Virus record (IMG/VR): IMGVR_UViG_3300037070_008166
Span: 1-60,788 of that record
Length of the DNA stretch: 60,788 nucleotides
Reading direction: 5' to 3' (one strand)
Source: a virus
Taxonomy: Duplodnaviria; Caudoviricetes
The notes below the pieces were generated by a model. That model did no database searches. It worked only from the letters and a program-made list of their open reading frames with translations, and had not been told where the DNA came from. Shown piece after piece: positions 43,620 through 60,788 of the stretch (position 1 is the first letter of the stretch; each line of letters starts with the position of its first letter). Position numbers and translations under genes: made by a program.

Positions 43620-43621
43620 CT

Positions 43622-46545: not shown

Positions 46546-46547
46546 TT

Positions 46548-46925: not shown

Positions 46926-46953
46926 TCATTGGTGCCAGATCCGGACGATCACC

Positions 46954-47003: not shown

Positions 47004-47059
47004 AGGACTTCCGACGGCGTCGACGTTCGATCTTGTCGAACCGTTTCTGCTGCTGGCGC

Positions 47060-47607: not shown

Positions 47608-47739
47608 TCCACAGCCCCAATTCCCGACATCGTCGGACCAGACCGATCGTGAGCCGATAGGCTGCGTCGTCATTTCCAAGCTGGATTGCGTGCCAGATAC
47701 ACGCAGTCCACGAGTTAATGACCTGACTCTGTCCTCGTG

Positions 47740-48609
47740 TCATTCGTCCTCCCATCGGTCCCATCGCGGGTGGCGGTAGGATCCGTCCGGCGTGCGCTCC
47801 TGGAACTCGATGCGGAGTTTGCGCCCGATGTCAGGGTGGACACGACCCACCCGAGCTCGCTCTTCGAGGGCACGGCATTCTTTGTCGTTCCTCGTTTTGA
47901 CCGTCGTCTCATTACCATCCTCGTCACGAAGCTGAACCATCCCATAGTTCCCTCGATACTGAATCTCCCCCTTCGACGGGATGAACCCGACGACTTCGAG
48001 CACGGCGGTCCGGAGCGCCTTGATCTTGATCCAGGCATCCTTCGGTCGCTTCCCTGGGACGTAGGTCGACTTCCTCCGCTTGAGGATGACGCCCTCCCCG
48101 TCCTTGGCCCAGATCTTGCTGACCGCCTTGTCCACGTCATCATTGTTCTTGACGTGCCACATCGGCGACAGCATCACAGAATCACTCAGCAGTCCTTTCG
48201 TCTGGATCTCTTCCAGATACGCGCGACGCTCGTCGTAGTTCTGCTGGACGATGGACACGCCGAGCAGATCCACGATGTCGAAGACCACGTAGATCAGGTT
48301 CGGGCCGTTGGCGATTTCCTTCACGCCGAAGGAGCGGTCGCCTGGCACGAACAGTTCCCCGTCGTAGACCCCACGCGGCAATCGCACGAGGTCCAGGATG
48401 ATGTGCGGAGGCAGCGCACGGACGATCCCGTTCCGGCTCCACGCGATGGGTGCGCGGTTCGGTTCCACCCGAACCATGATGCGGTGTCCGTCGTATTTCT
48501 GCTCGAGCGCCCAGATGCCCGGTTCGATGTTCAGGAACTTGGGCATCGACGCGGCGAGCATCGGTGTGGTGAATGACACGGTCGTATCCTCCTCGAATAG
48601 TCTGGTCAT
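47740..48609 (-). CDS. ATP-dependent DNA ligase (minimal)
   Basis: 'PMLA', motif I 'EQKYDGHR', 'WSRNG', 'YDGEL', 'VFDI', 'EGVILK', 'WIKIK', OB domain ending 'SYRHPRW'. Confidence 0.92.
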   Translation of the reverse strand: MTRLFEEDTTVSFTTPMLAASMPKFLNIEPGIWALEQKYDGHRIMVRVEPNRAPIAWSRNGIVRALPPHIILDLVRLPRGVYDGELFVPGDRSFGVKEIANGPNLIYVVFDIVDLLGVSIVQQNYDERRAYLEEIQTKGLLSDSVMLSPMWHVKNNDDVDKAVSKIWAKDGEGVILKRRKSTYVPGKRPKDAWIKIKALRTAVLEVVGFIPSKGEIQYRGNYGMVQLRDEDGNETTVKTRNDKECRALEERARVGRVHPDIGRKLRIEFQERTPDGSYRHPRWDRWEDE

Positions 48610-48611
48610 GG

Positions 48612-49025
48612 TTACTCGGCCTCCCCCGGCAAGTTTTCCAACGCCTCGTTGGCCCATTCGTCGGGCCCGTCGAGCGTGAGATCCTCGAACTGAAGTGGCT
48701 GGATGGCTCCATCCTGACCGTCGACGGCCTCCCACGCTTCGACCATCTCACTGGCCACTTCCCCCTTCTCCCCTTCCTTCCACGTGTCGGTGTGGTCATC
48801 GAACTCGCTGCGGAGGCGTTCCGTGATTTCGGCGACGAAGGCCATCTCTGTTTCCAGCTTCTGGTTGTAGATTTCCACCACCGTGCCGTTGAACTGGTCG
48901 ATGAGCTCGCGGATCTGCGCGTTCAGGTCCTCCAGCCTCGCCTCCACCACGTCCTTCGCGTCGGACAGCACGTTCATGGACGCGTTCAGGTTCTTCTGCT
49001 CGGCCTTGCTCAAGCGAAACGCCAT
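48612..49025 (-). CDS. acidic coiled-coil hypothetical protein
   Basis: GGAGG RBS; E/D-rich. Confidence 0.7.
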   Translation of the reverse strand: MAFRLSKAEQKNLNASMNVLSDAKDVVEARLEDLNAQIRELIDQFNGTVVEIYNQKLETEMAFVAEITERLRSEFDDHTDTWKEGEKGEVASEMVEAWEAVDGQDGAIQPLQFEDLTLDGPDEWANEALENLPGEAE

Positions 49026-49252
49026 TAATCTACCCTCCTCACGTCGACCACTTTGACCACATCTTCGCTGTTCGGATTGAGGTCGTTCCAGAACGACTCG
49101 TAGACCGCTTCCACGTCCGCCGGTGTCTTACTTGTGCGGAACATGAGATTGTCCTTCGTGTCGATCACTTCCACGCGGGCCTTCCCCACCCGCCGTCGCG
49201 TTGCCCGGCTCATGGCGACGGCGGTCACTGCGAACTTCATGGTTGACTCCAT
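49025..49252 (-). CDS. hypothetical protein
   Basis: 75 aa, coupled to neighbours. Confidence 0.55.
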   Translation of the reverse strand: MESTMKFAVTAVAMSRATRRRVGKARVEVIDTKDNLMFRTSKTPADVEAVYESFWNDLNPNSEDVVKVVDVRRVD

Positions 49253-49473
49253 CCTAGCTGTTCTATCATCTGAGTGAGATTGACTTCACCCATCGAATTC
49301 CACACAACAAATATCTTCCCAGATGCTGTGTGAAATGCACGTGCGCCATACGGACCACACGACGGAAAGCCATCGTGGCCGTATTTCACACTGACGATTG
49401 TCTCGTTCAGCAACGCATCAAAGCTGACGTGACGACGGATCCATCGCTTTTCTTTCTTGGTGCCAGATTCCAT
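49237..49473 (-). CDS. hypothetical protein
   Basis: ATG just after the helicase stop (MESGTKKE...). Confidence 0.55.
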   Translation of the reverse strand: MESGTKKEKRWIRRHVSFDALLNETIVSVKYGHDGFPSCGPYGARAFHTASGKIFVVWNSMGEVNLTQMIEQLGWSQP

Positions 49474-49477
49474 CGTC

Positions 49478-50932
49478 CTACTCCGTGACCCAGACCAAGG
49501 ACTTCTTGGCCCGCGTGATAGCGACATACTGGATGTTCTTTTCTTCCTGGTTGTGGTTGCGCAGCGTCGACTGCAGCACGAACACCCGGTCGGCCTCCAG
49601 ACCCTTCGACTTGTGGACCGACGAGCACGTGATCATACCCGCCTTGCCCAAGCCGTCATCCACGAACAACGCTTCGATGCGATCGAGCACTTCAGCCACA
49701 TCCTCGGCTCCATCCGTGAGCTCGATGAGCATGTCCGCCTTGTCCCGGATTCCCTCGACCAGTTTCTCCCGCTTCGCTCGGATCATCCGGTCGATTTCCC
49801 GTTCCCGCCACGCGATGAGTCGGTCCGTGAACTCGGCGACCGTTCGCGCCTTCAGCTTGCGGCACAGTGCAATCAGACCCTGACCAATGTTCCGGCCTTC
49901 GATCTGGGTGCGTTTGCCATTCCGGAGCAGCCGCATCGCCACGTTGACGAGCGGGGCGTTCACCCGCGAGAGGATGAAGTCGCCGGGACCTGCTTCCAGG
50001 AAGAGCTCGTGATACTTGATCGTTCGCACCTCACCCTCGTGATTGTCCGGCCCTGCGCTGAAGTCTTCCACCAACCGCTGCGCTTCTGCCACGATGGCTT
50101 TTCCACACCGATACGTGGTGGTCAGTGGGAGTTCCTCGGCGTCCAGTTCCTGCTGAATTCGCGCCATGGACTCCGAGTCCGCACCACGAAAGGCGTAGAT
50201 CGCTTGCATGTCATCACCGACGCCGGCGATCCGGTTCCGGCACACGCCCATGGCCAGTTCCAGCTGCGCCTTGGTCATGTCCTGCATCTCGTCGATTACC
50301 ACGAGGTCATACGACTTGTGCATCCAGCCGTTGCGGACTGGCAGAAAGATCATGTCCGCGCCGTCGATCCCGGTCAATACCGGCTTCACCGACGCGGCCA
50401 GCTCCATCGCTTCGAGCGCCTTCGTCTCCACGAACTCCGCACCGAAGCCGAGCGGCTCGTAGGCTTCATCCGGAACCAGTTCGAACTGATACTGGATGTC
50501 GGTCAGATCGCCGACCTTGCGAGCGTGTGGTTCCATCTCGCGACCCTTCGAGTGCAGCTTGGAAATCAGCTTCTTGATCGCGTCTGGCACACGCACGCCG
50601 CACACTTGCTGCGTGAGGTTGTCCTGGCGATCATCCTCGAAGTTCACGATGACGTCGGGCCAGTAGATCTTGACACACGCGAGGCCGACGCCGTGCAGGG
50701 TCTTCACAGTCGCGCGGGAGTTGCGTTGCTTGAACTCCTTGGCGATGCGGTTGTTGTAGGCGCAGTAGAGAATGTCGCGTTCCGGCGCGGCATTGATCCC
50801 GTCCAGCGCCGTGGTCGACTTCCCGGTGCCGGCTCGAGCCTTGATGATGAGATAGGGGCGATGCACGAGCGGCAGTCCCAGGCCGAACTTGAACCACCGA
50901 ATGATCGCCTCTTGTTGCAGTGAGTGTTTCAT
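49478..50932 (-). CDS. UvrD/Rep-like superfamily 1 helicase
   Basis: 'ARAGTGKS', 'TLHG', 'VIDEMQD', 'VGDDMQAIYAFRGA', 'TYRC', 'SVHKSKGLE', 'YVAITRAK'. Confidence 0.93.
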   Translation of the reverse strand: MKHSLQQEAIIRWFKFGLGLPLVHRPYLIIKARAGTGKSTTALDGINAAPERDILYCAYNNRIAKEFKQRNSRATVKTLHGVGLACVKIYWPDVIVNFEDDRQDNLTQQVCGVRVPDAIKKLISKLHSKGREMEPHARKVGDLTDIQYQFELVPDEAYEPLGFGAEFVETKALEAMELAASVKPVLTGIDGADMIFLPVRNGWMHKSYDLVVIDEMQDMTKAQLELAMGVCRNRIAGVGDDMQAIYAFRGADSESMARIQQELDAEELPLTTTYRCGKAIVAEAQRLVEDFSAGPDNHEGEVRTIKYHELFLEAGPGDFILSRVNAPLVNVAMRLLRNGKRTQIEGRNIGQGLIALCRKLKARTVAEFTDRLIAWREREIDRMIRAKREKLVEGIRDKADMLIELTDGAEDVAEVLDRIEALFVDDGLGKAGMITCSSVHKSKGLEADRVFVLQSTLRNHNQEEKNIQYVAITRAKKSLVWVTE

Positions 50933-51019
50933 GGAGCCTCCTCAGGCCGGTTAATTCCGGCGACGCGGACGGATCTGGATGGTGCCAGATCCGTCGCGAA
51001 TTGATGCGTTTCTAGCTCC
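50933..51019 (-). ncRNA. type II hammerhead ribozyme F (upstream of helicase)
   Basis: Minus strand: GGAGC-UA-GAAAC-GC..(UGGCACCA hairpin)..GC-GUC^-GCCGG-AAUUAA-CCGGC-CUGAGGA-G-GCUCC-AUG; predicted cut 50962/50961. Confidence 0.85.
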
Positions 51020-51179
51020 GGCTCGCTTCCGCGACGACTGGCGGCCACACGATTCCTGCACACGCGGTGCAGATCGCAATCTCACGCTTGATGTTGCCGT
51101 CCTCGTAGCGTTCGACGACTTCCTTCGTCATGGGTTCGTGCAGCTTCGTGATCTTCTGGCAGAGCTGACATCTAAACAT
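51012..51179 (-). CDS. small zinc-finger protein
   Basis: Not in track: MFRCQLCQK...ICTACAG...SRS*, GGAG RBS; its TAG lies in ribozyme F. Confidence 0.6.
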   Translation of the reverse strand: MFRCQLCQKITKLHEPMTKEVVERYEDGNIKREIAICTACAGIVWPPVVAEASRS

Positions 51180-51375
51180 GTTTCTCTCCTTCCGTCACAG
51201 GCAGCATGTCGATGTGCACGCGGCACCCGGTCAGCTTCTCGAGGAACTGCTCGGTCTCGAGAATCTTCTGGGTGATTTCCACGGCGTTGAGCGTCTCCGC
51301 ATCCACCGGATACCCTGGCACGATGGCCAGGGTTTCCGTGGAACGCTTCACGGTGAGATGGAACTTGACCTTCAC
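51172..51375 (-). CDS. hypothetical protein
   Basis: GTG start with AGGAGG RBS, coupled to upstream stop. Confidence 0.6.
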   Translation of the reverse strand: MKVKFHLTVKRSTETLAIVPGYPVDAETLNAVEITQKILETEQFLEKLTGCRVHIDMLPVTEGEKHV

Positions 51376-51944
51376 TTCGCCTCCTTGGTGAACGCGCCGG
51401 TGAACAACCAGCGCAGCCGGTGCTTCAGCGGGACGGTGTTGAACAACGTCGTGGTCTCCAGGACCTGGAGGCGGAGCTCGTCGACCTGCGATTCGAGCGA
51501 CTTGCACCGGGCCTCGTATTCCCGACGGTCGAGCCGCATCTGCGACATCGCGGATTCGGTGACCGACGTCACGGTTTCCTTCAGGATGTCCTGTCCCTCG
51601 AGCTGCTCGGTGATCTTTTCGACGATCACTTCGTCCAGGTCCTTCTCCTTCACAAACTCGTCGAAGTCCAAGTCGTCGACGGCCTTTTCCACCATCGAAT
51701 CCAGGTTGTTGACGACCAGATCCTCGAGCCGACGGTCGAACTCCCGGCTCTCGAGCACTGACTCCCGGACTGCGTCTTCATCCAGGATCTCGGGCAGGTC
51801 TTCGATGCGCTTCTCGAGCAACGAGAGGAACGCTTCGGTGTGTTCACCGAGTCGACGGTCGAACTCGGTGGTAAACAACGGGTCCGTGCAGAACTGACAG
51901 GTGCCATTGATGCAGGTGCAGATACGAACAGGTGTGGTGCTCAC
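51372..51944 (-). CDS. acidic helical/coiled-coil hypothetical protein
   Basis: 190 aa, D/E-rich, internal EFDRRL repeat. Confidence 0.7.
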   Translation of the reverse strand: MSTTPVRICTCINGTCQFCTDPLFTTEFDRRLGEHTEAFLSLLEKRIEDLPEILDEDAVRESVLESREFDRRLEDLVVNNLDSMVEKAVDDLDFDEFVKEKDLDEVIVEKITEQLEGQDILKETVTSVTESAMSQMRLDRREYEARCKSLESQVDELRLQVLETTTLFNTVPLKHRLRWLFTGAFTKEAK

Positions 51945-52141
51945 AGGGCCTCCTTCTTTTCGGTGATGTCATCGGTGGATGGAACGACGCGCCACTCGCG
52001 GACCAGGAGCCAGCGGCCCATCAGGTCCACGGCGTAGCGTTCGGCTTCCAGTTCGGTGCGGAACCGCAGCGCGTTGCCGGCCCAGACGCCGGAACTGTCA
52101 GCGATCACTTCGACTTTGAACGACTTCATCACGTCACTCAT
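51941..52141 (-). CDS. hypothetical phage protein
   Basis: 'WAGNALRF.TELEAERY..DL..RW' pattern. Confidence 0.65.
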   Translation of the reverse strand: MSDVMKSFKVEVIADSSGVWAGNALRFRTELEAERYAVDLMGRWLLVREWRVVPSTDDITEKKEAL

Positions 52142-52331
52142 CGTAGAGCTCCTGTTCCACGCCAGCCCACTTGGCCAGAACTGAACTAATCACGAAGGAC
52201 TTCGAGCAGTTGAATCGCGCCGCGTCCCGTTCCACCCGACGGCGAATCGCCGGGTGGAGGGAGGACGGGGACGGGATGCGGATGACGTCGCGAATGCGCG
52301 GCTGGTTGCGAAGCGTCTTGTGCTTAGGCAT
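52134..52331 (-). CDS. putative ribbon-helix-helix DNA-binding protein
   Basis: 'SSLHPAIRRRVERDAARFNCSKSFVISSVL' Arc/CopG-like. Confidence 0.55.
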   Translation of the reverse strand: MPKHKTLRNQPRIRDVIRIPSPSSLHPAIRRRVERDAARFNCSKSFVISSVLAKWAGVEQELYDE

Positions 52332-52554
52332 TGGCCCTCTTTTCCATACGGCGCTTGGCCCAGGATGCCTTCATTGCCAGCGAGCGGCGACGAGAGACAC
52401 TGAAGCTGGTGCGCTTCTTCACCACTTTCCTTCGCTTCCAGGTCGTCTTGCCAACGATCTTCGCCGCCATTGCCGGCGTGCCTGGTATCTCGAACAACGC
52501 ATCGAGCGCATCCGCTGCAAACCGCAACTTCTGTGAGAGTGTCTTGATCGTCAT
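52324..52554 (-). CDS. small basic protein
   Basis: Lys/Arg-rich 'RRRSLAMKASWAKRR' C-terminus. Confidence 0.6.
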   Translation of the reverse strand: MTIKTLSQKLRFAADALDALFEIPGTPAMAAKIVGKTTWKRRKVVKKRTSFSVSRRRSLAMKASWAKRRMEKRANA

Positions 52555-52557
52555 GGG

Positions 52558-52941
52558 TCACATCCCGTAGGTGGCGTAAGTGAAGACTTCCTTCTTCAGA
52601 TACGACTCGAGGAAGTCGTAGACCTCGGCGTCATACGACTTCTTGAACATGGCCTGCAGCTTCGGCGACTCCTTGAATTCCTTCATCCGCTTCAAGGACT
52701 CCTCGAACCGATTCGCGTCGAGCACGATCTCGATCACGTGTGACTTGGGCAAGCTGACGTTCTCCGCGGTGTGCTTGCCCCGGCGACCGTAGCCATTCTT
52801 TTCCATCGCGATGGCTTCCAGCACATCCCCAGCGCAGTCGTTCCACACCCCATCCGCGGCCCAGCGGATGGCACGGAGTTCGGTCTCGGACAGGTCGAAC
52901 TGCTTCTTCAATTGCGTCAGCGTCTTCGTTGAGCGTTTCAT
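52558..52941 (-). CDS. hypothetical protein
   Basis: GAGGAGG RBS supplied by ribozyme E. Confidence 0.75.
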   Translation of the reverse strand: MKRSTKTLTQLKKQFDLSETELRAIRWAADGVWNDCAGDVLEAIAMEKNGYGRRGKHTAENVSLPKSHVIEIVLDANRFEESLKRMKEFKESPKLQAMFKKSYDAEVYDFLESYLKKEVFTYATYGM

Positions 52942-53016
52942 GGAACCTCCTCAGGCCCGTCTATTCGGGCGAGTCGCGACCTTGGTGCCAGATTTCGCGA
53001 ACTTTCTAACTCCATG
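52939..53016 (-). ncRNA. type II hammerhead ribozyme E
   Basis: CAUGGAGU-UA-GAAAG-UUCGCGA..UGGCACCA..UCGCGA-CUC^-GCCCG-AAUAGA-CGGGC-CUGAGGA-G-GUUCCAUG; predicted cut 52971/52970; stem II covers the AUG. Confidence 0.85.
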
Positions 53017-53024
53017 CAGTAATT

Positions 53025-53152
53025 TGGGCGACTGGGACGACTTTGAGCCAGCCCAGGCGACCGCCCAGGACGCGTCCGGAACGGCGGTAAGGGTAGCGTC
53101 CCCTCCGTCCGTTCCGGCCGTCCTGTGTCGGGTATCTAACCTGAACGCGCCC
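53025..53152 (-). ncRNA. candidate structured RNA of unknown class
   Basis: Long hairpin CAGGACG/CGUCCUG + CCGGAACGG/CCGUUCCGG + AGGG/CCCU and a second hairpin CUGGG/CCCAG in a gap without a credible ORF. Confidence 0.45.
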
Positions 53153-53490
53153 TATCCCGCGACTTTCTCGAGCGTGTCCAGTCGGTAGCGCTGGCCGAGG
53201 CCAGTTCCGTGACCCATGCCGTGTTTCCGTTCGCACGAATCACACATGAGAGCCCACGGCCCCATCAGTGTCTTGCCATCCGTGAAGAAATCCTTCAACG
53301 GCTGGTGGCACATCTCGCACTTCACGGGCGTGACCCCCATCCACTTGCGCTTTTCCACCGTCTTCCTCCCTTCTTTGTGGGCGAGCACCGCGCCCACGGT
53401 CAGGTCCACGAATCGCGGGCCACCCACGCGGGCGATCCGTTCTTCCTGGACTTGCTCGAACGTGACCGGACGTCGTCTATTTGGTGACAT
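53152..53490 (-). CDS. Zn-binding hypothetical protein
   Basis: CxxC...'DGKT..GPWALMCDSC....G.G.GTGLGQRY' pattern. Confidence 0.7.
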   Translation of the reverse strand: MSPNRRRPVTFEQVQEERIARVGGPRFVDLTVGAVLAHKEGRKTVEKRKWMGVTPVKCEMCHQPLKDFFTDGKTLMGPWALMCDSCERKHGMGHGTGLGQRYRLDTLEKVAG

Positions 53491-53779
53491 CGGTGTAGAC
53501 CTCCAGTTCGAAATCGAGGAACTCGCGAATCGTCATGTCCGGCATCGCGCACGTCCAGATGCCAAGGCACGTGTCGGCGGCGACGTCGAACAGCGTCGCC
53601 TTCGCCGCCTCGAGCACCTGCTCACCCTGTTCCAGCGCTGTGTCCTCCTGTCCCTTCTCGGAGATGAAGAGCAACTCCATCTTCAACGCCCGCACCAGCT
53701 TGCCCTCGTCTTCCTTGTCCGGGTGATGATCCCGACCCAGGAAGCCGTCCATATCCACTTTCGTCACGCGGAACAACAT
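53477..53779 (-). CDS. hypothetical protein
   Basis: AGGAGG RBS; coupled start/stop. Confidence 0.65.
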   Translation of the reverse strand: MLFRVTKVDMDGFLGRDHHPDKEDEGKLVRALKMELLFISEKGQEDTALEQGEQVLEAAKATLFDVAADTCLGIWTCAMPDMTIREFLDFELEVYTDVTK

Positions 53780-54009
53780 CAGAACTCCTCCTTGTAGCCG
53801 AGCAATTCGAACCACGTGGTGCCGCCAACGATTGACAGCTTCCCGGTGCCATACATGTCCACGGCATAATTGTATGCCGTGGACACGTCGTAGGCTTTTC
53901 CAAGTCGACGCTCCGCGTAGATCTTCGCGGCGGCGAGTGTGTAGAACACCTTCGACTCCTTCAGTCCGTCGATGGTGGTGTAGCGCAGCCGGATGAGATT
54001 ACCGGACAT
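53779..54009 (-). CDS. hypothetical protein
   Basis: 76 aa, coupled to neighbours. Confidence 0.6.
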   Translation of the reverse strand: MSGNLIRLRYTTIDGLKESKVFYTLAAAKIYAERRLGKAYDVSTAYNYAVDMYGTGKLSIVGGTTWFELLGYKEEF

Positions 54010-54199
54010 CGAAGTGATCCATGGCGGTGGCGAGCAGATGATTGTAGTCCCCGCTTCTCATCTCCTTCATCACCTCGTCGATCTGCTCCTTGGTCCAGCC
54101 CGCCTTGCGAGCCGCTTCCTTGCACCGACCGAGAATGGCGAAGGCGTTTCCATCCTCACCAACCAGCTTCACCTTGGGACGCTTGCGCGTATCAGACAT
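53999..54199 (-). CDS. conserved small phage protein
   Basis: 'VKLVGEDGNAFAILG....A.RKAG....I.....E..SGDY.HLL' pattern; GGAGG RBS. Confidence 0.75.
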   Translation of the reverse strand: MSDTRKRPKVKLVGEDGNAFAILGRCKEAARKAGWTKEQIDEVMKEMRSGDYNHLLATAMDHFDVR

Positions 54200-54482
54200 C
54201 TCGCACCTCCACCAACTTGCAGACACGCATGAGATCTGCACGAATCTCTGGATACTCCTCTGAACCGTCAGCCGACACCGCGATCCTGAACGCCAGATCC
54301 TGGTCTAGACCCAATCTGTCCAAACATTCGGCGTAGTCGACGTCATGTCGATCAGCGACGGCAGTGATTGGACACACGTTCAAGCCGTTGGTTTCGTCTT
54401 TGGAACGAACTCGTTCGCCCCAATACAGATACCACGTGCGGTTCAACGCGGCCAGCTTCTCGAGGAACTCTTCATAGCTCAC
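54192..54482 (-). CDS. hypothetical protein
   Basis: GTG start, GGAGG RBS. Confidence 0.55.
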   Translation of the reverse strand: MSYEEFLEKLAALNRTWYLYWGERVRSKDETNGLNVCPITAVADRHDVDYAECLDRLGLDQDLAFRIAVSADGSEEYPEIRADLMRVCKLVEVRDV

Positions 54483-54649
54483 AGCACCACCTCCTCGACC
54501 AACGGCGTGCCGGGTGGCGGCGGATGGAAGCCACCCTGAATCACGAACTCGGCACCTCGCCAACGTGAGAACAGCTGCGCGTTCGCCGGGTCCAGGTCCC
54601 ATCCTGACCCGGTCCAGTAATACGTGAACGCCTTGATGCGATACTTCAT
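54479..54649 (-). CDS. small hypothetical protein
   Basis: Not in track: MKYRIKAFTYYWTGSGW...; coupled at both ends, AGGAGG RBS. Confidence 0.55.
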   Translation of the reverse strand: MKYRIKAFTYYWTGSGWDLDPANAQLFSRWRGAEFVIQGGFHPPPPGTPLVEEVVL

Positions 54650-54939
54650 CACTGGACCTCCTGTCCGCCGACCTGACGGACCGTTCGACCACCCTCTTCG
54701 ACGATGTGTTCCTGCTGCGCCCGGAGCTCCTCGACCTTCGCGACGAGGAACTCGTAGACCTTCTGCTTGTTCCCTTTCAGGCCGAACTCCTGCTTGGCGA
54801 CCGCGTAGCAGGAGCGGCCCCGCGTCAGCTTCATCCCGCGCAGTTCCGCCCGCACACCCGTCATCAGGGTGGCGAGACGGAAGTAGGCGATGCTGTCCCC
54901 GGTCACGGTCGTTCCGCCTTTGTGGTGGCTGATAGGCAT
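54649..54939 (-). CDS. hypothetical phage protein
   Basis: 'E..GMKLTRGRSCYAVAKQEFGLKGNKQKV' pattern. Confidence 0.65.
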   Translation of the reverse strand: MPISHHKGGTTVTGDSIAYFRLATLMTGVRAELRGMKLTRGRSCYAVAKQEFGLKGNKQKVYEFLVAKVEELRAQQEHIVEEGGRTVRQVGGQEVQ

Positions 54940-54940
54940 G

Positions 54941-55144
54941 TTAGTGTCCCTCGTTCCAGGTGGAAATGTCCTCGACCGCTTCGTCGAAGGACCAGACGGG
55001 AACCGCCGTCACGGTGTATTCGTCATCTTGCTCGTCGAGTGCTTCTTCGAGCTCCACTCGCCTCAGCTCCGCCACGTCGTCGTTGGTGACGCAGATGAAG
55101 TCGAGTTGCGGGTTACCACGCCATCGAATGACGAGGGCCTTCAC
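54941..55144 (-). CDS. acidic small protein
   Basis: GTG start coupled to upstream stop. Confidence 0.55.
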   Translation of the reverse strand: MKALVIRWRGNPQLDFICVTNDDVAELRRVELEEALDEQDDEYTVTAVPVWSFDEAVEDISTWNEGH

Positions 55145-55398
55145 TTGACACCCGACTGATGCTGAAGCGGAACGTCGAGCCACTCGAGCGCGCCCGCCAC
55201 CCAGCATCCCGGCTTGTGGCTGTCGACGTCACCGCAGATGAGGCACTCGACGAACGTCTCCTCGCTGGTCGAGATGTTACGAACCACGACTTCCTGCAAC
55301 TGCTCGACGGCGTGAGCGATTTCCACTTCCTGTTGCATGCTCAGTGTCGGAGCCTGACTGGGGTGGGTGGGTTGATGATGGAACCAGAGTTTGGCCAT
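55141..55398 (-). CDS. Zn-binding hypothetical protein
   Basis: CLIC....H..GC motif; GGAGG RBS. Confidence 0.6.
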   Translation of the reverse strand: MAKLWFHHQPTHPSQAPTLSMQQEVEIAHAVEQLQEVVVRNISTSEETFVECLICGDVDSHKPGCWVAGALEWLDVPLQHQSGVK

Positions 55399-55400
55399 GA

Positions 55401-55925
55401 CTACCTCCAAGAGAAGTGACGCTGGTCGAGGATGATCGACGTGACATCCCCGCCCGCCGGATTGGCGAACGTGAACTCTTCAAGACGCCGGTAGACCCGT
55501 TCCGCGTCTTCACGCACTTCCTCGATAACGGCTCCACGCTTCCAGTTCGTATCCACGATGAACACCGAACCGCCACCGTTCGAGCAGATGATGCGTGGTC
55601 CGATGGTGTCGGGAAGACCCATGTTCACGTAGTAACGCATCGCCCCACCCTTCTCACTGCTTTCCGTGTGACCCGCATCTTTCAACTCCTCGATGTTCGT
55701 GACGGTGCCTTCCAGCCGATACGACTGGACGAACGAATTGGCGCGGGGCCGTTCCCAGGTGTCGTTCCCGTCCACCGGCGTCCAGGTGAACTTCCACTGA
55801 CGTGTAACCATGGCGGCTCGCGCCTTCTTCACCTCCGCTTCACGCTTCGTCAGCACTTCGAGTTCGGCGTTGAGTTCCTTGCGACGTTCTTCGATGACGT
55901 GGAGTTCGTGAGTGAGTGTTGGCAT
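55401..55925 (-). CDS. hypothetical protein
   Basis: 174 aa with N-terminal coiled coil. Confidence 0.7.
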   Translation of the reverse strand: MPTLTHELHVIEERRKELNAELEVLTKREAEVKKARAAMVTRQWKFTWTPVDGNDTWERPRANSFVQSYRLEGTVTNIEELKDAGHTESSEKGGAMRYYVNMGLPDTIGPRIICSNGGGSVFIVDTNWKRGAVIEEVREDAERVYRRLEEFTFANPAGGDVTSIILDQRHFSWR

Positions 55926-56575
55926 TAGCGTCCATCCCAGTCTGAGAACGGTGTGGTGTAGCTGCGGTTGCCGCTGAGGTAGTTCACGGTCACGACGGAT
56001 TCACCGCCGTCGCCGTCGGGTTCGTAGATGCGGGCCACGAACTCCTTGGTCACGATGATCGTTTCGAAGTCGTCTTGGCGAATCATCGCGAACGTGGCCG
56101 TCACCGGGTAGTAGGCCCGGTCGGTATCGAGGAACGGACGGAACGCGCCGAACGGTTCCTCCCGCTGTCGTCGTGCGAGTTTGTCGGTCGTCATGGCATC
56201 TCCTTCAGGCCGGTCAATTCCGGCGACCCGCCGAAATCTTTGGTGCCAGATTTCGATCTGACTCACCTGAGCTCCGCCGTTCGCCTTCTTGTCCGCCGGC
56301 TCGGGAGCCATCGGGATGGCCGTGAGCGCGACTCCACGCTCACCGCGCTCCTTCAGGGTCCACTTCGCCGCGATGGCGTCCTTCACGAACTGGTCGAACT
56401 TCGCCTGTGCCTTGTCCTCTTCCTTCAGGTCGAAGTAGTCGCGCCCCGTCTTCACCTTCTGACCGGGAGCGCGGTGACGGAACGACACCTTGAAGTCCTT
56501 CTTCCCCCTGTGCAGGGAGACCGTGAGGGTGTCGTCCATCGCGCAGGTGAACTTCGCCGTCTGATTCTTTACCAT
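55925..56575 (-). CDS. hypothetical protein; two modules joined in-frame through decayed ribozyme D (internal start at 56194)
   Basis: MVKNQTAK... reads without a stop through the ribozyme-like element into AAGGAG-RBS-preceded MTTDKLAR... Confidence 0.6.
   Translation of the reverse strand: MVKNQTAKFTCAMDDTLTVSLHRGKKDFKVSFRHRAPGQKVKTGRDYFDLKEEDKAQAKFDQFVKDAIAAKWTLKERGERGVALTAIPMAPEPADKKANGGAQVSQIEIWHQRFRRVAGIDRPEGDAMTTDKLARRQREEPFGAFRPFLDTDRAYYPVTATFAMIRQDDFETIIVTKEFVARIYEPDGDGGESVVTVNYLSGNRSYTTPFSDWDGR
56195..56256 (-). pseudogene. degenerate hammerhead ribozyme D
   Basis: Keeps UGGCACCA hairpin, GUC and stem I GCCGG-AAUUGA-CCGGC, but core is CUGAAGGA and the UA-GAAA/stem II 5' strand is missing. 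Confidence 0.7.
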
Positions 56576-56640
56576 GCTCGCACCTTCTGACCGATGACCA
56601 CCAGCGGAATTGCCGGTGGGTCTTGCTACGGAGCGGGCCA

Positions 56641-56925
56641 TTAGTTCCACTCCGTATCCATGATGGCGATGAATGTGAGGCATTCCATCGCCGCCTTGAA
56701 CGCATCCCGGGTGGCCGACGGGGCCGACCCGGAGTAATTGAACGAGTCCACGATCGTCCCGCGTGGTGCCAGATCCATCGGCTGTTTGAGAGACTGGTCG
56801 ATGAACGGCTGCCGCACCACGAGGAAGTGCGACGAGTTGTTGGAAACGATGAGCGCCTTGCCGTAGTCCGTGAGCACTTCGGCACAGGGTTCATACTTCG
56901 AGATTTCGATGGATGTGTTCGCCAT
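56641..56925 (-). CDS. hypothetical protein
   Basis: GAGG RBS; 94 aa. Confidence 0.6.
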   Translation of the reverse strand: MANTSIEISKYEPCAEVLTDYGKALIVSNNSSHFLVVRQPFIDQSLKQPMDLAPRGTIVDSFNYSGSAPSATRDAFKAAMECLTFIAIMDTEWN

Positions 56926-56935
56926 GAAGGCACCT

Positions 56936-57391
56936 CTACAGCGTGTAAACCGGGTTGAACAGCAAACGGAAGGCGTTCCAGGTCTCGCGGAGGTGGCCGC
57001 CCACCTTTTCTTCGACCCGTTCCGCCGGCCGCACCTTGTCCGCGAGCATTGCGTCCGCGTAGTTCAGGGACGCGGCCCGGCACTCCTGGCACGGTTCGTC
57101 ATCGTGAGGCGGGTCTCCTGCGTGACGATGGCACGCGTGTGGTTCATGCACGGCGATAGTTTCTCGCCGTTCAGCGTAGTCTTCCTTCGAGACAAGCTCC
57201 AGGTCGTCGTGCTCGCTGCGGTTGAGGTAGAACAGCTTGAACTCTTCGCCGAGCCCGTCGTAGCGGACCCGGAGCTCGTAGAGTTTGTTGCCGGTCCAAG
57301 AGCCGCCGTCCTTCATCGTGTAGGACAGCGTCCAGTAGGTCGTGCCGGTCTCGCGGCTCATCGCGATCTCCGGCTTGTCGAATCGAGTCAT
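56936..57391 (-). CDS. hypothetical protein (His/Cys motif)
   Basis: ATG directly after ribozyme C (MTRFDKPE...). Confidence 0.65.
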   Translation of the reverse strand: MTRFDKPEIAMSRETGTTYWTLSYTMKDGGSWTGNKLYELRVRYDGLGEEFKLFYLNRSEHDDLELVSKEDYAERRETIAVHEPHACHRHAGDPPHDDEPCQECRAASLNYADAMLADKVRPAERVEEKVGGHLRETWNAFRLLFNPVYTL

Positions 57392-57393
57392 AA

Positions 57394-57472
57394 GGCACCT
57401 CGTCAGGCCCGTCCATTCGGGCGACGCGACGAATCTGGATGGTGGCCAGATTCGTCGTGGGTTTCTAGCGCC
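57394..57472 (-). ncRNA. type II hammerhead ribozyme C
   Basis: GGCGC-UA-GAAAC-..CGACGAAUCUGG-CCACCAU-CCAGAUUCGUCG-C-GUC^-GCCCG-AAUGGA-CGGGC-CUGACGA-G-GUGCC; predicted cut 57423/57422. Confidence 0.85.
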
Positions 57473-57635
57473 GTGGGCAGCTGATGAGACCGATATGGTC
57501 CCAATCAGCAGGAATGAACGTGCCGGAGCGATACAAGAAATGCTCGGCTCGTTCACGAGTTTCGAACGTCGCAATCAGGTTCAGCGGTGCGACGCCTTGT
57601 CCGTTGTTCCAGTAGAGAATCCACGAGAGTTTCAC
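57465..57635 (-). CDS. small hypothetical protein
   Basis: GTG start with AGGAGG RBS; its TAG lies in ribozyme C. Confidence 0.6.
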   Translation of the reverse strand: MKLSWILYWNNGQGVAPLNLIATFETRERAEHFLYRSGTFIPADWDHIGLISCPRR

Positions 57636-57684
57636 AGGCCCTCCTTGAATGTTCCGTCTGGGAATACGAGCCAACGTCGCCGTT

Positions 57685-57825
57685 TCATCTGTCCTCCAGA
57701 ATGCGACGTTCCATCTCGTCGCGAGGGTCGGCATATTCGACGCCGTCATCGTCACCCTTCTCACGCGGGTCTTGCTCGATTTCCACGTCGTCGTCATCCG
57801 GTTGGTCTTCGCCAGGATATCTCAT
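57685..57825 (-). CDS. very acidic 46-aa peptide
   Basis: Not in track: MRYPGEDQPDDDDVEIEQDPREKGDDDGVEYADPRDEMERRILEDR; AGGAG RBS; ATGA coupling. Confidence 0.55.
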   Translation of the reverse strand: MRYPGEDQPDDDDVEIEQDPREKGDDDGVEYADPRDEMERRILEDR

Positions 57826-58367
57826 CGCACGCTCCTAATCTTGTTGGCTGCAGCGGTTCGCTGCCGTTCCCGTGTCAGCACGTCTTTCCACTCCCGCGTC
57901 TCGGCCTCATGCGGCCAGATTTCCGAGAGCGCACCATACATCAGCGGCCGGAGCTCAGCGAGCAGCCCCGGATTGGTCACGAACAGCCGGAAGATCTCGG
58001 CGAACCACTCGTTCGTGTTCGCCGCGTAGCTGGTGATAGCATCTTCACCTGTTTCCCGACGCAGCTGCGCCGAGATGGTGCCGGATTTCGCACCGTGAGC
58101 CCGGTCCACGTGATGACCGAGCTCATGCGCGAGCACGCCATAGGGCGTGCGGTCGATGACGTAGCCAGGGAACGACCACGCCGGACCGCCCGTCCCGATG
58201 TGCGCGCAGCGCTTCACGGAGATGTGAATCACGTTGTTCCGGTAGTAGGCGCAGGTCCCGAAGAACGACGTATCTTCTTCGATGATGACCGGCGGAGCCA
58301 CCTGATTCAGGTTGCACCACCGTTTCACGAGGATCTCACCCGCGTAGAACATGTCACGCTTGTTCAC
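57822..58367 (-). CDS. zincin-like metallopeptidase domain protein
   Basis: HELGH motif plus downstream 'ITSYAANTNEWFAE' third-ligand motif. Confidence 0.75.
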   Translation of the reverse strand: MNKRDMFYAGEILVKRWCNLNQVAPPVIIEEDTSFFGTCAYYRNNVIHISVKRCAHIGTGGPAWSFPGYVIDRTPYGVLAHELGHHVDRAHGAKSGTISAQLRRETGEDAITSYAANTNEWFAEIFRLFVTNPGLLAELRPLMYGALSEIWPHEAETREWKDVLTRERQRTAAANKIRSVR

Positions 58368-58569
58368 GCTTCACCTCCGTCCGGTCCACTTCGCGGAGAC
58401 CGTCGTCATAGCGGTCGGTGCGATACTTCTTGTCGAGCCGAATCAAAAAGCAGTCCCCGTCGATTCCCTCGAGCACGCCGTGCTCCTCCGGCCAATCCTC
58501 CGTCGGGTTGGCAGGGAGCAGCACGCGGTCACCGTCTTTCCAATCTTTGGTGCCAGATTTCTTGGTCAT
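58354..58569 (-). CDS. small SH3/KOW-like beta-barrel protein
   Basis: 'WKDGDRVLL....E.GV...I.G...LIRLD' pattern. Confidence 0.6.
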   Translation of the reverse strand: MTKKSGTKDWKDGDRVLLPANPTEDWPEEHGVLEGIDGDCFLIRLDKKYRTDRYDDGLREVDRTEVKREQA

Positions 58570-58733
58570 CGGTCGTTCCTCGCTTCCTCAGCCCAGACCT
58601 TGCGTTGACGTTCGAACTCGTCCGCCGTCACCTGCTTCGCCCAGCGTCGCCAGCACGGCGTATGAGCTGGGACACCAAGATACCAAGTGACGCCGAACGG
58701 TTTTCCACAGATGGCGCAGCGACGCGGTTTCAT
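58566..58733 (-). CDS. small zinc-finger protein
   Basis: CAICGK...HTPC. Confidence 0.55.
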   Translation of the reverse strand: MKPRRCAICGKPFGVTWYLGVPAHTPCWRRWAKQVTADEFERQRKVWAEEARNDR

Positions 58734-58737
58734 CGGA

Positions 58738-59088
58738 CTACCACGAGCCTTGCGAACGACGATTGACATCCAGACGGAGATCGGACAGGTGGTCGATTCC
58801 GTTGTCGACGTAGTCCAGCTTGTCCTCGAGGTCGCTGGACAGGTCGTGCAGGTTGTCGAGGCGACGGTCTTCCGCCTTGGACAGCGTGTTCACCGGGCTG
58901 TGGTCATCACCGGTCCGCGCTTCGAGCATCTCAATCTCGTTGTCGATGTCGACCATGAGGTTGTTCATCATGTTCGCGCCGAGGTTGAATGCCTTCATCG
59001 CCTTGTTGCGCAGCGCGATGCGAGCCTTGAGCGACATCGGGCGGAACTTTCGAGCGAAGCCGTGGTTACGACGAATGGACTTAGTCAT
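58738..59088 (-). CDS. coiled-coil hypothetical protein
   Basis: GAGGAGG RBS supplied by ribozyme B. Confidence 0.7.
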   Translation of the reverse strand: MTKSIRRNHGFARKFRPMSLKARIALRNKAMKAFNLGANMMNNLMVDIDNEIEMLEARTGDDHSPVNTLSKAEDRRLDNLHDLSSDLEDKLDYVDNGIDHLSDLRLDVNRRSQGSW

Positions 59089-59090
59089 TG

Positions 59091-59168
59091 GGAACCTCCT
59101 CAGGCCGGTTCATTCCGGCGATTGAGGGCGGATGGCTTGGTGCTACCATCCGCCCGATTTCTAGTTCC
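59091..59168 (-). ncRNA. type II hammerhead ribozyme B
   Basis: GGAAC-UA-GAAAU-C-GGGCGGAUGG-UAGCACCAAG-CCAUCCGCCC-UCA-AUC^-GCCGG-AAUGAA-CCGGC-CUGAGGA-G-GUUCC; predicted cut 59120/59119. Confidence 0.85.
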
Positions 59169-59400
59169 TGTCGAGCTCGACGAGTTTGCGAACCACATGC
59201 GGCCGGCCTTTGCCATTCACCAACTTCTTGGCCAGGACGTCCTCGGCGACCACACGGTCGTCGAACATGGCGACGTCGTCGGTCAGTTCCGGCGACCAGA
59301 GTATGTCGGTTGAGTCGTCGAGCAGATACGAACGCTTGGCTGCTCGAGCGCCGACGGGCACGAGGTCAGACACAATCACGTAGACGATGGACTTGTTCAT
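59161..59400 (-). CDS. hypothetical protein
   Basis: MNKSIVYVIV...; its TAG lies in ribozyme B. Confidence 0.6.
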   Translation of the reverse strand: MNKSIVYVIVSDLVPVGARAAKRSYLLDDSTDILWSPELTDDVAMFDDRVVAEDVLAKKLVNGKGRPHVVRKLVELDRN

Positions 59401-59543
59401 CGCTTGACCTCGATGACCTTTGAACCAGGGAAGAACACGAGAAGTTCTTTGACCGACGAGAACTTCATCACACCAGCTCCACCAACCGAAACACAAATCT
59501 GTCGGCCTTGGCGGTAATACTTCAGAGTCAGAGTCTTGGCCAT
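59397..59543 (-). CDS. small hypothetical protein
   Basis: Not in track: MAKTLTLKYYRQG...; AGGAGG RBS; ATGA coupling. Confidence 0.55.
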   Translation of the reverse strand: MAKTLTLKYYRQGRQICVSVGGAGVMKFSSVKELLVFFPGSKVIEVKR

Positions 59544-59650
59544 TAGTGAGCCTCCTGAGCAACGAGCCACCGAAAGGTGGCGAACCAGACAACCACACCG
59601 ATGAGCAGGTAAGGCAGCAGCGTTTCCATTTCAGTGACTCCATTGGAAGT

Positions 59651-59684
59651 GCCCGGCGAATCCTTGGTGCCAGATTCGCCGGGC
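59651..59684 (-). promoter_or_regulatory. stand-alone UGGCACCA-loop hairpin
   Basis: GCCCGGCGAAUC-UGGCACCAAG-GAUUCGCCGGGC, perfect 12-bp stem, no hammerhead core. Confidence 0.7.
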
Positions 59685-59693
59685 GAGGATGAA

Positions 59694-59891
59694 CTACGTG
59701 AGACGCAACTCCTTGACCATCGCGTCGAACTGCTTCTTGGTGCAGAACGACTTCTCTTCGACGGTCAGCTTGTTGTAGTTGAAGTCGAGCTCGATGAACG
59801 AGTAGCGCAAGAACTGGCGAACCACGTTCACCGTGACCAGCGTGACCGGGTGAATCAGCACGTCGCCGGTGATAGGCTTCATGTTATCCAC
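59694..59891 (-). CDS. hypothetical protein
   Basis: 65 aa, in operon. Confidence 0.55.
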   Translation of the reverse strand: MDNMKPITGDVLIHPVTLVTVNVVRQFLRYSFIELDFNYNKLTVEEKSFCTKKQFDAMVKELRLT

Positions 59892-60060
59892 GCTTCACCG
59901 CCTTCAGTGTGAAGACCGCCCGGGAGTAGGAGCCGTCGCGGTATCGCTTGAACGGCTTGACCTTGACCACTTCGAAGACCTGACCCACGCGGAACACCTT
60001 GAGTTCGTTCTTGCCGTCGCGCGTCCAGGCCATCTGCACTTGAAACCGTTTCGTATTCAT
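59884..60060 (-). CDS. small basic beta protein
   Basis: Not in track: MNTKRFQVQMAWTRDGK...; AGGAG RBS. Confidence 0.6.
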   Translation of the reverse strand: MNTKRFQVQMAWTRDGKNELKVFRVGQVFEVVKVKPFKRYRDGSYSRAVFTLKAVKRG

Positions 60061-60068
60061 GGTGGCTC

Positions 60069-60230
60069 CTAGAAGTTACGGACTCGCTCGTTGTGCCGCC
60101 GAGCCACGACACGCGCCATCTTGTCGAGCAGACTCGACGGCTTGGGCAGCTGCGACTGGGACAGCTTGTAACATGTGGAGCAGAGACCCTCGCGGGTGGC
60201 CTTCTTGATTTCACAGCAGTAGCATTTCAT
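60069..60230 (-). CDS. small zinc-finger protein (first gene of the minus-strand operon)
   Basis: MKCYCC...LCSTC; ATG directly after ribozyme A. Confidence 0.6.
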   Translation of the reverse strand: MKCYCCEIKKATREGLCSTCYKLSQSQLPKPSSLLDKMARVVARRHNERVRNF

Positions 60231-60231
60231 G

Positions 60232-60291
60232 GGAACCTCGTCAGGCCCGTTCATTCGGGCGAGGCCAGCTGGCGCCAGCCTTTCTAGTTCC
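60232..60291 (-). ncRNA. type II hammerhead ribozyme A
   Basis: GGAAC-UA-GAAAG-GC-UGGCGCCAGCUG-GC-CUC^-GCCCG-AAUGAA-CGGGC-CUGACGA-G-GUUCC; predicted cut 60261/60260. Confidence 0.85.
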
Positions 60292-60294
60292 ACG

Positions 60295-60715
60295 GCTTGC
60301 GAATCCGGTTGGGTGCCGAATTCGCGAGCCGCGTTGGCATTGTGTTGGCTTGTATGTGGAGGACTTGTTTGCTCTGAATCCCGTTCGCCTGGACCGGCAT
60401 GCGCGAGTTTCATCAGAGTGATTCGTTACGCGGTCGTTCAGACCGTTTCGCCGTTCGCCCGAAAGCGTTTCATCCCTCAGTCCCGTATCCGCCGCGTTGC
60501 GCTCGCTCGTTGCGACTGCATGGTGCCAGATTCGCGAAGCGCGCAGGAGGACCGGCTATCCCGAGGATACCAGCACTCGACGTAGGTTTCTGGGAGGCTC
60601 TTGATTCCCTTACCCGGAACGCTTTTCAGCTCCACCGTTACGGTGGCCGGTCTCAGGGCAATTCGGCGACTCCCCGTCACCCACGCCCGTTCGGCCCTAA
60701 CACGACGGCCCGAAC
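60295..60715 (-). ncRNA. candidate long structured leader/ncRNA
   Basis: ~420 nt with no credible ORF and many hairpins, including a UUCG loop and two GGCAC-loop hairpins. Confidence 0.45.
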
Positions 60716-60722
60716 TAGGCCA

Positions 60723-60728
60723 ATTATA
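60723..60728 (-). promoter_or_regulatory. putative -10 box (TATAAT) of early promoter
   Basis: Perfect TATAAT on minus strand just upstream of the structured leader; no canonical -35. Confidence 0.5.
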
Positions 60729-60788
60729 CCGCGCTGCCAGGCTGCTTGCTTGCTGCGTGGTGCCAGACGCTAACTCCTTTACTATCAA

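Follow-up and report, generated by a model that had tools for sequence, protein, structure and literature searches.

Clusters of hammerhead ribozymes between phage genes have been in print since 2011; an earlier, first-pass annotation of this DNA had also called the class not new. Three prophage clusters described in PMC3088659 cleaved as expected during in vitro transcription, one of them also in E. coli, and cleavage is on record too for three type II hammerheads close to phage-like genes in Desulfovibrio vulgaris (PMC8782182). In the prophages of Agrobacterium tumefaciens, Azorhizobium caulinodans and Clostridium scindens, several hammerheads lie on each transcript between single genes or short blocks, and the role proposed for them is the cutting of long transcripts to gene- or operon-length mRNAs (PMC3088659); a review still describes the hammerheads of bacteria and phages as lacking a defined biological role (PMC6765202). 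Most type II hammerheads are described as forming a pseudoknot in which loop I pairs with the bases that directly follow stem II, and in the RF02276 consensus a stem II of 2 bp is followed by a 3' tail that pairs with loop I in this way (PMC3088659).

The locus described here lies in a window of 60,788 nt, meaning the whole stretch of DNA analysed, from an uncultured phage (IMG/VR record IMGVR_UViG_3300037070_008166; Duplodnaviria; Caudoviricetes). Its minus strand carries five intact type II hammerhead elements between genes and a degenerate sixth, which most likely represent five functional ribozymes and one dead relic within a long minus-strand early/replication transcript. The features are as follows.

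60229..60293, minus strand: hammerhead A, type II; predicted cut 60261/60260; AUG of a 53-aa ORF at 60230
59088..59170, minus strand: hammerhead B; predicted cut 59120/59119; AUG of a 116-aa ORF at 59088
57391..57474, minus strand: hammerhead C; predicted cut 57423/57422; AUG of a 151-aa ORF at 57391
56193..56263, minus strand: degenerate copy F; stem I and UC intact, UAGAAA gone, stem II unpaired
52939..53015, minus strand: hammerhead D; predicted cut 52971/52970; AUG of a 127-aa ORF at 52941
50930..51021, minus strand: hammerhead E; predicted cut 50962/50961; AUG of the helicase gene at 50932
50980..50988, minus strand: CUGGCACCA motif in the stem III loop region of hammerhead E
49478..50932, minus strand: UvrD-type DNA helicase gene, 484 aa (Pfam UvrD-helicase 1.9e-15; PHROG 1967 DNA helicase 2.1e-78)
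47740..48735, minus strand: ATP-dependent DNA ligase gene (Pfam DNA_ligase_A_M 8.6e-21; PHROG 114 4.3e-41)

Read directly, all five intact sites have the same order on the minus strand: a 5-nt stem II strand, UA, GAAA, the stem III hairpin, UC, GCCSG-AAUNRA-CSGGC, CUGANGA-G, the complementary stem II strand, and an AUG within 0-2 nt. This bears out the type II layout that the first-pass annotation had claimed for these sites; its predicted cut positions, which are those listed above, and the lengths it gave for the blocks between them (1141, 1697, 4452 and 2009 nt) are arithmetically right. As in the type II hammerheads of RF02276 (PMC3088659), the strand order, catalytic core, A15.1-U16.1 pair and C17 are present, a GC-rich stem I directly precedes CUGANGA, and stem II is open with stems I and III closed. 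Unlike RF02276, the window copies have a stem II of 5-6 bp, a loop I of 6 nt (AAUNRA) without pseudoknot covariation and an unpaired A by 11.1. The array resembles the prophage clusters of PMC3088659 in the placing of several hammerheads per transcript and in the role proposed for them, but belongs to a different phage and holds a stop codon and a Shine-Dalgarno sequence inside the ribozyme. HHphage of the archaeal haloviruses HF1/HF2 is a salt-dependent core variant lying 13 nt before a start codon (PMC3088659), whereas copy E directly abuts its AUG and departs from the standard core only in the extra A. What is particular to this phage is the combination of no Rfam match, an extra A by G12, a UAG stop ending in G12, a Shine-Dalgarno sequence in the core and a phage-specific motif in stem III.

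The catalytic letters are kept. All five window copies have a core strand of CUGACGA or CUGAGGA (C3 U4 G5 A6 N7 G8 A9), the GAAA ... UC that supplies G12, A13, A14, the A15.1-U16.1 pair and C17, and G10.1. A 20-nt pattern of stem I and core matched the window exactly six times, always on the minus strand and at these sites, and with up to two mismatches allowed gave 9 matches, where shuffled sequences averaged 3.18 (0 of 100 shuffles reached 9). A covariance model (R1), built from 31 copies in viral contigs of which only one came from the window, scored the five copies at 50.8-62.9 bits (E 1.5e-16 to 6.9e-13) and copy F at 33.1 bits, with the next match in the window at 11.2 bits. R1 found 79 copies from 27 sources, often arrayed. 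Among these matches C3, U4, G5, A6 and G8 are each present in 79/79, A9 and G10.1 in 78/79 each (the exception being relic F), G12 and A13 in 76/76 and U16.1 in 78/78, with H17 a C in 78 and a U in one. Loci matching the pattern in bacterial and archaeal genomes were also considered as family members; only 5 R1 matches occurred among 80 of at least 120 such loci, so most of them lie outside this subfamily.

Individually, copy A scored 62.9 bits and its minimum free energy (MFE) fold gave the three-way junction (z -2.91); B scored 55.7 bits (z -4.98), C 52.9 bits (z -5.47) and E 55.4 bits (z -4.41), while the fold of D (50.8 bits) was weakly favoured (z -0.79). By eye, stem III of B and C starts with just two pairs, followed by an internal loop. 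The AUG had been placed inside stem II in E; in the MFE folds it is in D that the AU of the AUG can extend this stem, and in E it does not. The core of copy F reads CUGAAGGAG, with one inserted base, and its C3-A9 region is CUGAAGGA rather than the CUGACGA or CUGAGGA of the five intact copies. A reading frame (56641..55925) runs open through it, its MFE fold is not a hammerhead, and its fit to R1 has non-pair marks in stems II and III, in keeping with the decayed sixth copy described at first pass.

All three stems covary. Within the window, stem III changes between GAAAC/GUC, GAAAG/CUC and GAAAU/AUC, stem I between GCCGG/CCGGC and GCCCG/CGGGC, and stem II between GGAAC/GUUCC, GGAGC/GCUCC and GGCGC/GUGCC, as had been listed correctly, and two wider alignments also covary strongly. 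In a MAFFT alignment of 31 copies, 97.0% of cells were paired compared with 71.0% after shuffling (slid controls reached at most 46.7%), and both sides had changed in 11/16 pairs; in a model-fitted alignment of 76 distinct rows, 96.8% were paired compared with 70.1%, with both sides changed in 14/16 pairs. The search pattern fixed the letters of stem I and the core and left stems II and III and GAAA free; approximately 20 copies found by the model alone keep the core and compensate their changes in stem I. Some of the pairs in stems II and III of the window copies are G-U, and these would be A-C mismatches on the other strand, which identifies the minus strand as the RNA strand. Topology, intact CUGANGA/GAAA/UH core and covarying stems together support the type II hammerhead reading. 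A column-pair screen of loop I against both flanks found no informative covariation for a loop I pseudoknot, the tertiary contact usual in type II hammerheads (best z 4.4, between two near-invariant columns); a tertiary contact of another kind may be present.

The five copies differ from the standard core at one point. None has a standard 10.1-11.1 pair with G12 directly after 11.1; all read Y-U-A-G12, so that G10.1 and U could pair as a wobble only, with one A in excess. The first-pass annotation had reported a conserved extra UA: the extra nucleotide is real, but since the U can pair with G10.1 in the MFE folds, it is probably one and not two. Of 65 family copies parsed at this junction, 28 have the UA/CA form and 30 an AC form with the standard C11.1-G10.1 pair, and both forms occur in the same arrays. 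The rules of the 2011 survey excluded mispairs at 10.1-11.1 (PMC3088659), and a literature search for insertions at 11.1/12 in hammerheads found nothing relevant. The check with Rfam hammerhead models proposed at first pass left the window copies unreported, with no match in the whole window at the gathering score, and none at E up to 10 in 49000-60788 or in 91 nt around copy A; relatives in other contigs scored 25.4-33 bits compared with the RF02276 gathering score of 37. As our own model and the core letters agree, we take this silence as a limit of the Rfam models and not as absence. Current Rfam hammerhead models therefore miss a phage subfamily of dozens of copies, which matters for the annotation of viral metagenomes.

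The same insertion could mean that these are hammerhead-derived structured RNAs in which cutting was lost or became very slow through the extra A. They would then serve as structures between cistrons, with stem II masking both the Shine-Dalgarno sequence and the AUG and setting the translation level of the next gene. The insertion does adjoin G12, the general base, the copies go unreported by every Rfam model, and stem II covers the bases that separate the Shine-Dalgarno sequence from the AUG. We nevertheless consider this unlikely, as non-catalytic hairpins need not keep every catalytic nucleotide in five diverged paralogues and 79 family copies, the UA/CA form shares arrays with the standard-pair AC form, and copy F, the sole copy to have lost core letters, has also lost its stem II pairing, which is the pattern expected of decay.

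In all five window copies (5/5) G12 is the last letter of an in-frame UAG stop, which closes the upstream ORF at 59163-59161 in B and at 57467-57465 in C, and a 55-aa ORF at 51014-51012 in E. The core GAGG or GGAGG (G8 A9 G10.1 G10.2) is a Shine-Dalgarno sequence, with the AUG 6-8 nt after G10.1, and each element sits between a stop and a start codon. Across the family, a stop starts 2-13 nt before G12 in 47 of the 54 copies that are preceded by an open frame of 40 codons or more, and a start codon lies 6-14 nt after G10.1 in 53/63. A literature search for a natural hammerhead core doubling as a Shine-Dalgarno sequence returned nothing on point, and the terms 'Shine-Dalgarno', 'ribosome binding' and 'stop codon' do not occur in the main text of PMC3088659.

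Each ribozyme would fold during transcription and cut after C17. The upstream product would keep its stop codon and have stem III, carrying a 2',3'-cyclic phosphate, as its terminal hairpin. The downstream product would open with the 5-bp hairpin of stem I, which would bear a 5'-OH; next would come CUGA(C/G)GAGG, the single-stranded remainder of the core and the Shine-Dalgarno sequence, and then the AUG. Such end structures may stabilise both products. Before the cut, one strand of stem II would consist of the two final codons of the upstream ORF and the other of the bases that separate the Shine-Dalgarno sequence from the AUG; afterwards the products would be joined by the 5-6 bp stem II helix alone, and its melting would free the ribosome-binding site. 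Cleavage, end stabilisation and this unmasking are predictions from the sequence. RiboJ-type insulators likewise place a self-cutting hammerhead upstream of the ribosome-binding site, so that every coding unit has a defined leader that starts with a 5'-OH. RiboJ itself is engineered, and its ribosome-binding site comes after an added hairpin, whereas here this site is part of the core and the stem II strand; the likeness to RiboJ drawn at first pass is therefore fair, except that it had put the site downstream of the ribozyme and not in the 3' part of its core. In phage T7, RNase III sites between the early genes allow the long early transcript to be cut, with hairpins at the product ends; there a host enzyme cuts, while here the RNA would cut itself. 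The best reading of the whole, and a natural one by analogy with other prophage clusters (PMC3088659), is that the early/replication transcript would be self-cut into blocks.

More tentatively, and with considerable doubt, the array may represent a distinct sub-form of type II hammerhead that Rfam misses. Its stop codon would consist of U11.1, the inserted A and G12, its Shine-Dalgarno sequence of G8-G10.2, and one strand of its stem II of the two final codons upstream. With translation signals built into the ribozyme in this manner, self-cleavage would gate the translation of every downstream block. The sub-form would, in this phage, also have absorbed a phage-specific hairpin-loop punctuation signal, CUGGCACCA, found also alone after stops and possibly recognised by a protein that tunes cleavage or acts on 3' ends after processing. 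The array is a compact natural test case, its intercistronic gap filled by ribozyme from core stop codon to core Shine-Dalgarno sequence, and lends itself to asking whether cleavage is needed for translating the next gene.

Alternatively, cleavage itself might be conditional, with a factor that binds the CUGGCACCA loop on stem III switching the ribozymes on or off or marking processed 3' ends, a reading that we consider quite improbable. In its favour, 13 exact copies of the motif occur in the region from 42142 to 60766, every one of them on the minus strand, and with up to one mismatch 36 matches were found against a shuffle mean of 14.75 (0 of 100 shuffles reached 36). Stem III holds an exact copy in D (52983-52991) and in F (56241-56249) as well as in E, with near-copies in A, B and C; others lie outside the ribozymes. 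A stop codon in some frame is found 7-23 nt upstream at 9 of the 13 exact sites, closing frames of 21 to 487 codons, five of them shorter than 50. However, the binding protein is purely hypothetical, three sites (46013, 45614 and 42150) are antisense to plus-strand structural genes, and the motif was not found in stem III of other phages' hammerheads. No multi-copy relatives were found among viral contigs (5 single matches) or, for at least 119 single matches in metagenome contigs, among the matches listed, and both results fit chance. A sigma-54 promoter form was also considered for the motif, and the GG-N10-GC spacing misfits in the copies compared by eye.

The genes of the array are co-directional, tightly packed small ORFs without a family match; the helicase gene is the first after hammerhead E, with the ligase gene further along the same strand, a context that fits an early/replication operon, where an early operon had been proposed at first pass. 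Scanning 48000-60788 for sigma-70-type promoters gave 3 promoter-like sites compared with 2.8 expected, none at a ribozyme. That the elements are DNA-level repeats (promoters, operators or recombination sites) with an incidental hammerhead likeness is highly implausible: they do recur between genes and share one orientation, but compensatory changes keep three helices despite differing sequences, G-U pairs work on the minus strand only, the invariant letters are exactly the hammerhead core, and that scan placed no promoter at these sites. A search of the phage collection gave no match by megablast of the 12.8-kb region or by blastn of copy A, and relatives of the helicase had an identity of 33% or less. 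The same 48000-60788 interval contained 5 terminator-like sites compared with 10.9 expected.

On the minus strand, five sites (A to E) were found to share one layout, read directly from the sequence in all five. A 5-nt strand precedes UA and GAAA; next come an 18-45 nt hairpin, UC, a 5-bp hairpin (loop AAUNRA) and CUGA(C/G)GA-G, after which the first strand's complement leads to an AUG, 6-8 nt 3' of the G ending CUGA(C/G)GA-G. This strand order is that of a type II hammerhead, and the core is complete in each copy (C3-A9, G12-A14, the A15.1-U16.1 pair and C17, the predicted cut site), in agreement with the topology and intact core proposed in the first-pass annotation, whose coordinates, cut sites and module lengths also proved correct when the sequence was re-read.

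60293-60229, minus strand: hammerhead copy A
59170-59088, minus strand: hammerhead copy B
57474-57391, minus strand: hammerhead copy C
53015-52939, minus strand: hammerhead copy D
51021-50930, minus strand: hammerhead copy E
56263-56193, minus strand: hammerhead relic F

Site F retains stem I and UC, with one base inserted in CUGANGA, UAGAAA gone and stem II unpaired (sequence reading and R1, the covariance model introduced below); it is a hammerhead relic, and the decayed copy claimed earlier is thereby borne out. A reading frame (56641..55925, minus strand, 238 codons) is open across the relic, and the AUG that follows it (56194) is in-frame with this ORF, which may have arisen by fusion of two ancestral genes once the ribozyme had decayed, or may be a single gene that has an internal start.

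A 20-nt pattern of stem I and core matched the window exactly six times, only at the A-F sites, and a stem I/core pattern hit 26 loci in viral contigs, four of which have arrays of 6 to 10 copies each. When 31 copies with short stem III hairpins, one of them from the window, were aligned (A1), the three stems were paired in 97.0% of cells compared with 71.0% in shuffled controls and no more than 46.7% with slid partners, and both sides changed in 11 of the 16 pairs; the stems thus covary among homologues, a check that the first-pass annotation had proposed. The search pattern fixed the stem I and core letters beforehand, and evidence independent of it is provided by stems II and III, by GAAA, which is invariant though outside the pattern, and by approximately 20 extra copies found by the covariance model only, in which the core is kept and stem I shows compensated changes (e.g. 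GCCAG/CUGGC, GCGGG/CCCGC). That model, R1, was built from A1 and scored A-E at 50.8-62.9 bits, relic F at 33.1 and all else in the window at 11.2 or less. Across 27 sources it matched 79 copies, with C3, U4, G5, A6 and G8 conserved in 79/79 and A9 and G10.1 in 78/79, the exception being relic F. The model-fitted alignment, which is biased toward the model, was 96.8% paired versus 70.1%, and the G-U pairs of stems II and III are compatible with the minus strand only. The reading of these sites as a hammerhead array is supported, the pattern matches and R1 scores confirming the original observation. The subfamily also forms arrays, of 6 to 13 copies, in four other uncultured phages (L017, L013, L006 and L025); in L017 the stem III stem (CGAGGG/CCCUCG) is identical in several copies while their loops differ, suggesting that these copies were recently duplicated or subject to gene conversion.

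The Rfam search suggested at first pass gave a different outcome, with no hammerhead model reporting A-E in the whole window at gathering scores, over 11.8 kb at E up to 10, or, for copy A, in the 91 nt around it. Relatives in other contigs reached 25.4-33 bits with Hammerhead_II, for which the gathering score is 37. In the Hammerhead_II consensus stem II is only 2 bp long and there is a 3' tail, which in the majority of type II hammerheads forms a pseudoknot with loop I (PMC3088659), whereas the present subfamily has a stem II of 5-6 bp and a loop I of 6 nt; a column-pair screen found no informative covariation for a loop I pseudoknot.

All copies had been described as having an extra nucleotide (UA) between stem II and G12. 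Probably only the A is unpaired, because the U can pair with G10.1, and copies A and B do form this pyrimidine-G10.1 pair in their MFE folds. Among the 76 distinct rows of R1 matches, 65 unique copies were parsed at this junction (the remainder being incomplete or unfit for the parser), and the two bases 5' of GAAA were AC in 30, UA in 23, CA in 5, UC in 4, GC in 2 and CC in 1. In the AC form G10.1 is paired with the C, and the A bulges out one step inside stem II; in the UA/CA form G10.1 has the pyrimidine as its possible partner, which leaves the A between 11.1 and G12. The first base of the UA/CA form is a pyrimidine in 28/28, which fits pairing, the copies not being independent, and both forms occur side by side within the same arrays. 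From the junction counts and the pyrimidine pairing, the unpaired A beside 11.1 is a hallmark of the subfamily and is not peculiar to this phage. The rules of the 2011 survey discarded matches mispaired at 10.1-11.1 (PMC3088659); its core-variant section covers nucleotides inserted after A6 and after A13, together with a U10.1-U11.1 mismatch, and describes no insertion at the 11.1/G12 junction.

Translation signals are built into the ribozyme. Each of the five copies has, within CUAGAAA (UUAGAAA in D), a UAG that is the in-frame stop of an open frame lying upstream and that supplies G12 as its last base. The gene chosen by the codon-usage chain ends at the core UAG in B, C and E (79, 56 and 55 aa); the upstream frames of A (a 38-aa ORF lacking a ribosome-binding site) and D (76 aa, Arg/Gly-rich) are weak, and the UAG may be unused as a stop in these two. 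Stop-in-core was also seen at three further loci, in four UA copies, of which the two in L006 close frames of 144 and 126 codons. The commoner position of the stop in the family is just 5' of the stem II strand or within it, starting 2-13 nt 5' of G12 in 47 of the 54 copies whose upstream frame has 40 codons or more, and a start codon lies 6-14 nt 3' of G10.1 in 53/63 copies. The Shine-Dalgarno sequence is G8 A9 G10.1 G10.2; N7 is G in three of the five window copies, giving GGAGG, and in only 7/79 family copies. Between the end of the gene at 53490..53152 and copy D lie 136 nt (53016-53151, minus strand) whose sole frame is Arg/Gly-rich and probably non-coding.

The minus strand from approximately 60.8 kb down to 47 kb carries tightly packed co-directional ORFs, 8 of the 10 tested having no Pfam or PHROG family. 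A UvrD-type helicase gene lies directly 3' of copy E with a DNA ligase gene further on (Pfam, PHROG), and portal, tape-measure and tail-fibre genes are found on the plus strand between 1 and 46.9 kb. Given this division of helicase and ligase from structural genes, the label of early/replication operon, as in the first-pass annotation, is a fair one; a promoter scan of 48000-60788 identified no promoter. By a heuristic gene chain, the blocks between the ribozymes hold 5, 6, 13 and 7 ORFs. Upstream of copy A, about 500 nt (60294-60788, minus strand) without a convincing ORF contain two copies of a 9-mer described below and a TATAAT at about 60728-60723 with no good -35 box, and may be where the leader or promoter of the early operon lies. 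The window is one entire IMG/VR virus record of 60,788 bases with a completeness estimate of 70%, and as the contig ends at 60788 further ribozymes could lie outside.

Co-transcriptional self-cleavage after C17 is the likeliest mechanism, and we regard it as quite probable given established hammerhead chemistry and the cleavage tests on other prophage clusters (PMC3088659). The transcript would be cut into blocks starting with a 5'-OH stem I hairpin and ending in the stem III hairpin and UC with a cyclic phosphate, ends which might slow 5'-end-dependent and 3'-exonucleolytic decay. After cutting, stem II would be the sole link between the products, so that the Shine-Dalgarno sequence and AUG would be freed. 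Natural type II hammerheads were introduced by Perreault et al. 2011 (PMC3088659), where single genes or short gene blocks of prophages were often flanked by multiple hammerheads, processing of long phage transcripts was the proposed role, and cleavage was shown for three clusters; the class was therefore already known, as the annotation had acknowledged. In vivo cleavage was reported for three type II hammerheads near phage-like genes by Olzog et al. 2021 (PMC8782182), and a 2019 review still called the purpose of hammerheads in bacteria and phages undefined (PMC6765202). The additions made here to a known kind are modest, namely the junction A, the core-built signals and a stem III motif.

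This motif, the 9-mer CUGGCACCA, occurs exactly 13 times, always on the minus strand within 42142-60766, with none elsewhere in the window, so that its range is the right-hand 19 kb only. Example sites are:

59665-59673, minus strand: exact match to CTGGCACCA
58548-58556, minus strand: exact match to the same 9-mer
49458-49466, minus strand: exact match to the same 9-mer

D, E and F each have one exact copy in stem III, with near-copies in A, B and C, and the 9-mer accounts for the unusual length of stem III in this phage. Other copies stand alone, often as a hairpin loop with site-specific arms. A stop codon in one frame or another lies 7-23 nt 5' of the 9-mer at 9/13 sites, closing frames of 21 to 487 codons (five below 50). 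Three sites are antisense to plus-strand structural (tail-fibre-region) genes, so if the 9-mer acted at the mRNA level alone, read-through transcription would be required. Multi-copy relatives turned up neither in other phages' hammerheads nor in viral contigs nor, among the matches listed, in metagenome contigs. Candidate roles are a protein-bound RNA hairpin, an orientation-dependent operator and a Chi-like signal. At 59650-59694 (minus strand) a strong lone hairpin of about 12 bp holds the 9-mer in its loop; a weak match to CRISPR-DR9 (Rfam, 21.6 bits, E 0.62) is this hairpin read on the opposite strand. The hairpin lies within a 150-nt gap between two small ORFs.
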